DNA of 64,000 nt, taken from NCBI RefSeq assembly GCF_044647545.1, contig NZ_CP172818.1; one strand, given 5' to 3'. A model generated the notes under the pieces. It did no database searches, was not told the DNA's origin, and saw nothing but the letters and a program-made list of their open reading frames with translations. This DNA comes from Escherichia coli (GTDB taxonomy: Bacteria > Pseudomonadota > Gammaproteobacteria > Enterobacterales > Enterobacteriaceae). Shown here one piece after another: positions 53,358 to 54,922 of the stretch (position 1 is the first letter of the stretch; every line of letters begins with the position of its first letter). The position numbers were made by a program, and so were the translations under genes.

Positions 53358-53706
53358 TTACGCCTGGTTTTTGGCTTTTGAACGGGAGGTACGTGATTCA
53401 CCGATCAGCCAGTCAAAGATGAAAATAATCGCCAGCATCACCACGATCAGAATGGAACCGTAGGCAATCGCTACACCGTATTCGCCATCTTCCACGCGGT
53501 TGAGGATGTAAGCCGTCGCTACGCGGGTATCCGGCGTGACGAGGAACACAATGGCGCTGACGGTGGTAATGGCGCGCACAAAGCTGTAAATCAGCGCCGA
53601 GAGGATCGCCGGGCGCAGCAGCGGCAGCAGGATGTGCGTAATGGTACGCAGGGAACCGGCGCGCAGGCTGAGTGAGGCTTCATCGAGCGATTTATCGATT
53701 TGGTCC
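53358..53706 (-). pseudogene. afuB: ABC transporter permease C-terminal fragment (afuB), 5' part removed at the IS1 junction
   Basis: Contains the permease EAA-loop (LDEASLSLRAGSLRTITHILLPLLRPA); reading frame enters the IS1 terminal repeat. Confidence 0.8.
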
Positions 53707-53721
53707 GGTAATGAATCCAAC

Positions 53722-54219
53722 TTACTGATAGTGTTTTATGTTCAGATAATGCCCGATGACTTTGTCATGCAGCTCCACCGATTTTGAGAACGACAGTGAC
53801 TTCCGTCCCGGCCTTGCCAGATGCTGCCTCAGATTATGCCGCTCAATTCGCTGCGTATATCGCTTGCTGATAACGTGCAGCTTTTCCTTCAGGCGGGATT
53901 CATAAAGCGGCCATCCGTCCGTCATCAATACCACCACGTCAAAGGCCGATAGCAGGCTCAGAAGACGCTCCAGCGTGAACATTGTGCGTTCACCGAAAAC
54001 GTGCGCCACGACAGTCCTGCGTACCCTGTCATACGCGTAAAACAGCCAGCGCTGGCGTGATTTAGCCCCGACGTAGCTCCACTGTTCGTCCATTTCCGCG
54101 CAGACGATGACGTCCCTGCCCGGCTGTATGCGCGAGGTTACCGACTGCGGCCTGAGTTTTTTAAATGGCGGAAAATCGTGTTGAGGCCAACGCCCATAAA
54201 GCGGGCGGTTGCCCGGCAT
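53722..54219 (-). CDS. insB: IS1 InsB
   Basis: 165-aa ORF ...[24 protein letters not shown]... Confidence 0.9.
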
Positions 54220-54413
54220 CCGACGCCATTCATGGCCATATCAATGATTTTCTGGTGTGTACCGGGTTGAGAGGCGGTGTAAGTGAACTGTAGCTGCCAT
54301 GTTTTACGGCAGTGAGAGCAGAGATAGCGCTGATGTCCGGCAGTACTTTTACCGTTACGCACAACGCCGTCAGTAGCGGAACAGGAGGGACAGCTGATGG
54401 AAATGGAAGCCAC
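54138..54413 (-). CDS. insA: IS1 InsA
   Basis: 91-aa [46 protein letters not shown]... Confidence 0.9.
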
Positions 54414-54468
54414 CGGAGCACCTCAAAAGCACCGTCATCCACTAAATCAGTAAGTTGGAAGCATCACC

Positions 54469-54649
54469 GAGAACACAAATGGGCTAATTCGGCAGTACTT
54501 TCCTAAAAAGACATGTCTTGCCCAATATACTCAACATGAACTAGATCTGGTTGCTGCTCAGCTAAACAACAGACCGAGAAAGACACTGAAGTTCAAAACA
54601 CCGAAAGAGATAATTGAAAGGGGTGTTGCATTGACAGATTGAATCTACA
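54469..54649 (+). mobile_element. IS30 3'-terminal fragment (about 181 bp), abutting IS1
   Basis: Matches 46125-46305 of the complete IS30 copy apart from one mismatch near the start, including the terminal repeat ...TTGCATTGACAGATTGAATCTACA. Confidence 0.9.
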
Positions 54650-54900
54650 GCAGCTTTTTTTAATATGTCCCGTTCGTCGGTAACCCGTTTCAGCTCTTTC
54701 TGGAGACGGCGGATCTCGGCCTGAGCATCTGACTGTTCTTTATTAGTGGAAGAATCCGGACCGTACTTCTTTATCCAGGCATAAAGGCTGTGGGTGGTGA
54801 TATCGAGACGTGTTGCAACGCTGGCAACAGAATAACCGAGATCAACAACCTGTTTGACTGCTTCAGTTTTAAACTCTTCGGGATAACGCTTACCGCTCAT
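54650..54900 (-). pseudogene. insX: IS3-family OrfA fragment (insX-like), 3'-truncated at the IS30 end
   Basis: MSGKRYPEEFKTEAVKQVVDLGYSVASVATRLDITTHSLYAWIKKYGP...ERDILKKAA then IS30 terminal repeat. Confidence 0.75.
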
Positions 54901-54922
54901 GGGCACCTCTCTTTAAGCCATT

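Follow-up and report, generated by a model that had tools for sequence, protein, structure and literature searches.

How did a truncated afuB gene, an unusual IS1, the tail of an IS30 and a broken IS3-family orfA come to lie end to end in the 64,000-nt stretch of Escherichia coli DNA analysed here (the window), and is anything about the arrangement new? The region is an insertion sequence scar at the afuB end of a K-12-type CP4-6 island, a junction without a function of its own. Its architecture was already known from K-12, and the new part is the identity of its IS1, which belongs to a different isoform that we call IS1x. The scar was very probably inherited with the island, and the resident IS1B was later swapped end to end for IS1x in the lineage of the window only. 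The original prediction, which described a scrambled junction containing a divergent IS1, did not recognise the locus as the known K-12 CP4-6 site. The features on which our reading draws are these:

37415-37490: thrW; the switch from core to island lies within 37277-37500
45085-46305, plus strand: full-length IS30 (K-12 IS30A), inserted in IS911 orfA; the reference for the 181-bp remnant at the junction
52300-53346, minus strand: afuC (fbpC in K-12), 348 aa, Pfam ABC_tran and TOBE_2
53358-53706, minus strand: afuB remnant, the last 115 codons and the stop, Pfam BPD_transp_1
53704: a single base, T in the window and C in K-12 by direct comparison of the two, 3 bp outside the IRR end of IS1
53707-54468, minus strand: IS1x, 762 bp, with IRR at 53707 and IRL at 54468
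54138-54413: insA of IS1x, 91 aa
54156-54162: A6C frameshift motif of IS1x, at element position 307
54469-54649, plus strand: remnant of IS30 consisting of its terminal 181 bp with the right inverted repeat; the preceding 1040 bp are lost
54650-54964, minus strand: IS3-family remnant (ISX/insX in K-12), 315 bp, the left inverted repeat and the first 85 orfA codons
54929-55279, minus strand: yagB, a CbeA-family antitoxin gene, from the K-12 annotation mapped onto the window

Read along the plus strand, the order is afuC, afuB remnant, IS1, IS30 tail, IS3-family remnant and yagB. The RefSeq annotation of K-12 gives the same series (fbpC, an ABC permease pseudogene, IS1B, an IS30 fragment, a transposase fragment, yagB and ISEc19, which carries yagA), so the scrambled order that had been predicted from the letters is borne out. 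The same is true of the pieces themselves: the truncated afuB, the IS1, the IS30 fragment and the orfA all lie where they had been placed, with matches far above chance. IS1B has been placed within the afuB gene of K-12 (PMC12428005), and ISX is counted among the IS elements of that strain (PMC5009759).

The gene afuC is full length, 94% identical to O157 AfuC from end to end, and encodes an intact ABC ATPase that is orphaned, as had been claimed, with neither a partner permease nor a binding protein; the window has no afuA, nor any afuB sequence besides the remnant. Comparison with a strain carrying intact afuABC, which had been proposed as a check, shows what is left of the permease: the remnant is 96.6% identical by tblastn to residues 578-692 of the 692-aa AfuB of O157:H7 EDL933, and only those residues survive. 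This is far from an AfuB/FbpB-type permease, which has ~692 aa and two BPD_transp_1 domains and is encoded between afuA and afuC. The remnant is a pseudogene, and it carries that status in K-12 RefSeq under the label ‘ABC transporter permease subunit’. Its open reading frame extends 14 nt into IS1, in keeping with the earlier statement that the permease frame runs directly into the IS1 end.

On the other side of IS1, the IS30 tail is exactly 181 bp long and abuts the element at 54469, just as predicted. It matches 180 of the 181 bases of 46125-46305 in the full IS30 of the window and, having neither the 1221-bp length nor the transposase gene and pair of repeats of an IS30, it is a remnant rather than an element; K-12 is annotated with an IS30 family fragment here. 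The next piece was correctly identified as a truncated IS3-family orfA, but its end had been set at 54906, and the element reaches ~54964, 58 bp further. The orfA fragment itself (54650-54906, 85 aa) matches Pfam HTH_Tnp_1 with E = 4e-19 and also NF033516. The piece begins with the left end TGAATCGCC and has an A7G motif at the break. A complete member of the family would go on to an orfB with a DDE domain and would be bounded by TG...CA ends; here orfB and the right end are absent. Homologues in other genomes match up to 54963/54964 on one side and continue beyond 54653 on the other. The piece is the remnant of a member of the IS3 family, its orfA cut by IS30 directly after the A7G frameshift motif. 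The last 12 codons and the stop of yagB (54929-54964) lie inside the ISX left end, and the native C-terminus of this antitoxin homologue appears to have been replaced by IS sequence.

IS30 is found at homologous positions of two IS3-family orfA genes in the window, that of IS911 (45084/45085) and that of ISX (54649/54650). Both insertions sit just after an A6-7G frameshift motif (ATATTAAAAAAGGCTAC and ATATTAAAAAAAGCTGC), in opposite relative orientations. IS30 has a known insertion-site preference, and the paired sites fit it.

The boundaries of IS1 suggest how the scar was formed. The 9-bp flanks of the element, ATTTGGTCC and GAGAACACA, are unrelated, and the 8-9-bp direct duplication made by IS1-family elements is absent at the junction. 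A missing duplication is what is expected once an IS has generated a deletion, and it is therefore no argument against the identity of the element as an IS1. The element is bordered on the left by afuB codon 578 and on the right by IS30 position 1041, a mismatch that reads as the signature of either an adjacent deletion mediated by IS1 or recombination between two of its copies in direct orientation. Nested IS insertions and a later deletion mediated by IS1 give the best explanation of the scar as a whole. An IS3-family ISX would have inserted at the 3′ end of yagB, and IS30 would then have entered its orfA directly after the A7G frameshift motif. An IS1 event, by adjacent deletion from one IS1 or by recombination between two direct copies, would then have taken out the whole segment from afuB codon 577 to IS30 position 1040. 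Lost with it would be afuA, 83% of afuB, an unknown stretch of DNA, the part of ISX beyond the IS30 insertion and the 1040 bp missing from IS30, and the outcome would be the retention of one IS1 without a target duplication and the orphaning of afuC. A single scar does not preserve the sequence of the insertion events or the number of IS1 copies, one or two, behind the deletion.

Our comparison with the K-12 CP4-6 locus covers 37501-64000; the right end of the island lies beyond the window, and the site of the partner IS1C is just past 64000. The breakpoints of the junction are the same to the base in the two genomes, and the flanking sequence is identical over 25.7 kb, with zero differences apart from base 53704. 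Within IS1 there are 54 substitutions and a 6-bp deletion. In the 13.5-kb stretch around the junction, which is colinear with K-12, all differences are confined to 53704-54459. Where K-12 has a 768-bp type II IS1B, the window has a 762-bp isoform that is 92% identical to it. The junction as a whole is present in ~310 of 5426 complete E. coli genomes, and a search of PLSDB plasmids shows that it is also carried by F′ plasmids.

The two islands sit in different surroundings: that of K-12 lies beside K-12 core, and that of the window beside an ST648-type core. Positions 1-37276 are 2-4% divergent from K-12, and the left block, from at least 19170, is almost identical to ST648-type strains. The segment 29600-37500 is 100% identical to many ST648 genomes, which hold only an integrase remnant at thrW. 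This arrangement points to a recent horizontal acquisition of the CP4-6 island, which would have occurred by either site-specific integration or homologous recombination in a 224-bp shared stretch. CP4-6 is a supposedly cryptic prophage that has been reported to excise at ~1e-5 (PMC4632033). A 7-bp site-specific crossover at the core/island boundary was considered and withdrawn, as the island-bearing strain BS-04 also has T at 37493. Further left, at ~28420-29240, the window is without ~1 kb of the rtcB-prfH region relative to strain ST648; the gap resembles the pseudogene arrangement of K-12, and the sequence there is only ~95% identical to K-12.

The element at the junction is not a decayed one. 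IS1x conforms to the IS1 family in its length (~768 bp for the family) and in its imperfect terminal repeats (~23 bp, starting GGT(G/A)ATG), its IRL GGTGATGCTTCCAACTTACTGAT and IRR GGTAATGAATCCAACTTACTGAT agreeing at 20 of 23 positions. An uninterrupted frame of 230 aa encodes the InsAB′ fusion, with a -1 frameshift at the A6C motif and the insA-insB′ organisation of the family. Its product matches Zn_ribbon_InsA, HTH_Tnp_IS1 and DDE_Tnp_IS1 (1.7e-69) and scores 230 bits against NF033558, where the cut-off is 100. Judged from sequence, IS1x is structurally intact. Its InsA carries F81, as does that of IS1B, and the InsA L81F change has been linked to poor IS1B activity (PMC12428005).

The original prediction had noted terminal bases that depart from the IS1 consensus and had called for an alignment to the IS1 isoforms. 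The mismatches are real: two are near the IRR end, at its positions 9 and 19, and one is at position 10 counted from the IRL end. The alignment gives 92.2% identity to K-12 IS1B, 91.5% to IS1A and ~90% to IS1F, the last value being too low for the element to be a K-12 IS1F. The ‘divergent IS1’ is thus a different, intact isoform at the exact site of IS1B and not a drifted copy of it. PGAP labels it only ‘IS1 family transposase’, and the K-12 copies are labelled IS1A, IS1B or IS1F.

IS1x is a rare isoform that, at an identity of at least 99%, is almost confined to pSFxv_2-type plasmids. It reaches that identity in 6 of 9569 matching E. coli records, namely 6.85-kb plasmids of this type and a partial chromosomal plasmid copy in NT1F25, and it is also found on the corresponding plasmids of Shigella flexneri. 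The plasmid-type copies (S. flexneri NC_021922 and NC_017320, E. coli MS14385 plasmid 6, and NT1F25) are 99.3-99.5% identical to the IS1x of the window and share with it the 6-bp deletion, the variant inverted repeats and the InsB protein. Exact-protein look-ups of InsA, InsB and the afuB′ open reading frame, made in search of a second instance of the allele, gave nothing beyond one plasmid-like metagenome scaffold that encodes this InsB. The plasmid copies also have private changes at four sites where the window keeps the base of IS1A and IS1B, and their flanks are unrelated to those of the window, so they are candidate relatives rather than demonstrated donors. NT1F25 was inspected for an IS1x-flanked cointegrate, which would be proof of an active IS1x, and a single IS1x was seen, adjoining the partial plasmid copy.

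K-12 IS1B (L001, 6350-7117) agrees with IS1x at 7 of the 9 positions at which it differs from IS1A, and four of the seven cluster about the A6C frameshift window. This patch suggests that there may have been an older, patchy exchange among isoforms.

If one of two islands has changed its IS1, related islands should tell which. The islands of MLI104K1, 0H26 and plasmid p89_MLI23-1 differ from both the window and K-12 at 4-11 other positions, and all of them have an IS1 of the IS1B/IS1A type together with C at 53704. That C forms part of a Gly codon that is conserved in intact AfuB. It follows that both IS1x and the T at 53704 are derived in the lineage of the window. The reverse history, with IS1x as the original occupant and the IS1B of K-12 and its relatives as the replacement, could draw on the sites shared by IS1B and IS1x, the frameshift-window patch included, as a possible leftover of IS1x. 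It is nonetheless very unlikely, because every other sampled island, the outgroups separated by 4-11 SNPs among them, has the IS1B/IS1A type and C, because T is derived relative to intact afuB, and because the type II sequence also occurs at IS1C, and nearly so at IS1D, as befits a normal transposed isoform.

The derived allele has so far been seen in one place. IS1x joined to either flank of the junction was not found in complete RefSeq E. coli genomes. Exact-pattern scans found no IS1x left junction in GTDB representative genomes or JGI metagenomes and neither IS1x junction in IMG/VR contigs, and PLSDB plasmids contain no junction module with IS1x. An IS1x-specific 45-mer used to look for a reservoir species had no match in GTDB representative genomes. 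Nor did any IS1x among the complete RefSeq E. coli genomes and the compared plasmid copies have a flank matching the window that would mark it as a donor.

This uniqueness, together with the union of 37.5 kb of ST648-type sequence and a K-12-like island in one contig, would fit an artefact, either a wrong IS1 copy filled in or polished into place or a chimeric contig of ST648-type and K-12 DNA. We consider an artefact unlikely. Since the ends of the two isoforms share 8-9 bp, the k-mers across the junctions are isoform-specific, and a graph assembler would presumably have needed supporting reads to join them. Reads from a copy that is 8% divergent map better to their own locus, and polishing should spare an IS1B. 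The other 25.7 kb of the island is free of errors, and islands of the K-12 type are also found in other lineages and on plasmids. Reads from a high-copy pSFxv_2-type plasmid were also considered as a source of both IS1x and the T at 53704, and were rejected on the mismatch of flanks: GGTAGG/ATAATG and ATTTA/GGTAATG on the plasmids versus TCC/GGTAATG in the window.

IS1 isoforms do, to go by IS1 copies in other strains and on a plasmid, exchange sequence in nature. E. coli 19SZHZ869Rt has a 762-bp chromosomal IS1 (L017, 1504-2265) that is a clean mosaic: a plasmid-type IS1x interior, positions 65-588, lies between consensus-type markers (positions 1-19 and 639-762), and there is no target duplication. 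In 0H26 the IS1 at the locus studied here (L014, 4016-4783) contains a foreign patch at positions 91-160, and in p89_MLI23-1 the IS1 beside afuB′ is an IS1B/IS1A hybrid. The switch points of the 19SZHZ869Rt mosaic fall in the 45-50-bp identity blocks nearest the ends, whereas the replacement in the window is complete.

This completeness bears on how the swap took place. All three terminal markers in the window, on both ends, are of the IS1x type, and IS1x and IS1B share only 8-9 bp of sequence at each end. A RecA-type double crossover should keep IS1B markers at the ends, as in 19SZHZ869Rt. With the terminal markers converted and 8-9 bp of identity left, simple gene conversion is not a full account of the swap. 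A second clue is the T at 53704, which lies so near the IS1 end as to suggest that the change is tied to the swap event; a random single change within 3 bp of either IS1 end has a probability of ~5e-4 (12 of ~25,700 positions, a post hoc figure). Our literature search found nothing specific on the conversion of IS1 isoforms. Our best guess is that the resident IS1B was replaced by copying from an ectopic IS1x, initiated by a break or gap, in which case error-prone fill-in at the edge of the copied tract would give the C-to-T change at 53704.

A transposase could instead have driven the replacement by acting at the ends, so that those of IS1x were joined exactly at both IS1B boundaries. This might have involved an insertion abutting one end of IS1B followed by a deletion to its other end, or two like-end conservative exchanges with an IS1x plasmid in the manner of the IS26 family, and by either route the whole element would be swapped with its flanks intact. 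Such a reaction would explain what homologous recombination does not, namely a swap that takes in even the outermost markers, 8-10 bp from the ends, and it would place the sole flank change within the 9-bp zone that is gap-filled after IS1 strand transfer. IS1x also has the necessary parts: both inverted repeats, insA, the A6C motif and an open InsAB′ frame. There is a documented precedent in the targeted conservative cointegration of the IS26 family (Harmer and Hall, PMC7885326), in which like ends react to set a whole IS against the flank of another, and neither a further copy nor a target duplication arises; two such exchanges would yield a swap of this kind. However, IS26 belongs to another IS family, and the reaction has not been reported for IS1, which makes the comparison an analogy only. 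The IS26 reaction works with identical transposases and an extended stretch of identity at the reacting end, and IS1x and IS1B differ by 8%. Two precisely targeted events would be needed, and IS1x shares the InsA change linked to poor activity of IS1B (PMC12428005). We therefore consider end-targeted replacement improbable in this case and retain break- or gap-initiated copying as the favoured route.

More generally, there is a slim chance that one IS1 isoform can take the place of another in its entirety through a reaction at the ends of the element itself, by transposase-catalysed exchange or by break repair primed at the IS boundaries. This would be a bacterial counterpart of P-element replacement or of the targeted conservative reaction of IS26, and it would leave the flanks and the lack of a target duplication as they were. 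Were end-targeted replacement of IS1 true, identical IS copies at orthologous sites would have to be reread in strain typing and in the dating of insertions.

The junction itself matters for annotation only: K-12 records already show a pseudogene for afuB, an afuC without partners and two dead remnants, one of IS30 and one of an IS3-family element. What is left is a small but real curiosity, the exchange of IS1 isoforms in an otherwise ordinary locus. It offers a clean natural example of IS copies being homogenised or replaced at a fixed site and, unlike the partial mosaic of 19SZHZ869Rt, departs from what simple homologous recombination predicts.

Some of the related islands have been rearranged further. 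The junction in 0H26 also carries an 11.5-kb IS1B-IS1C deletion. In p89_MLI23-1 (L008, 4346-10175), a block consisting of IS5, mmuP, mmuM, afuC, afuB′ and IS1 has moved onto the plasmid via the hybrid IS1. A 330-bp fragment of afuC is found in many plasmids of IncF size.
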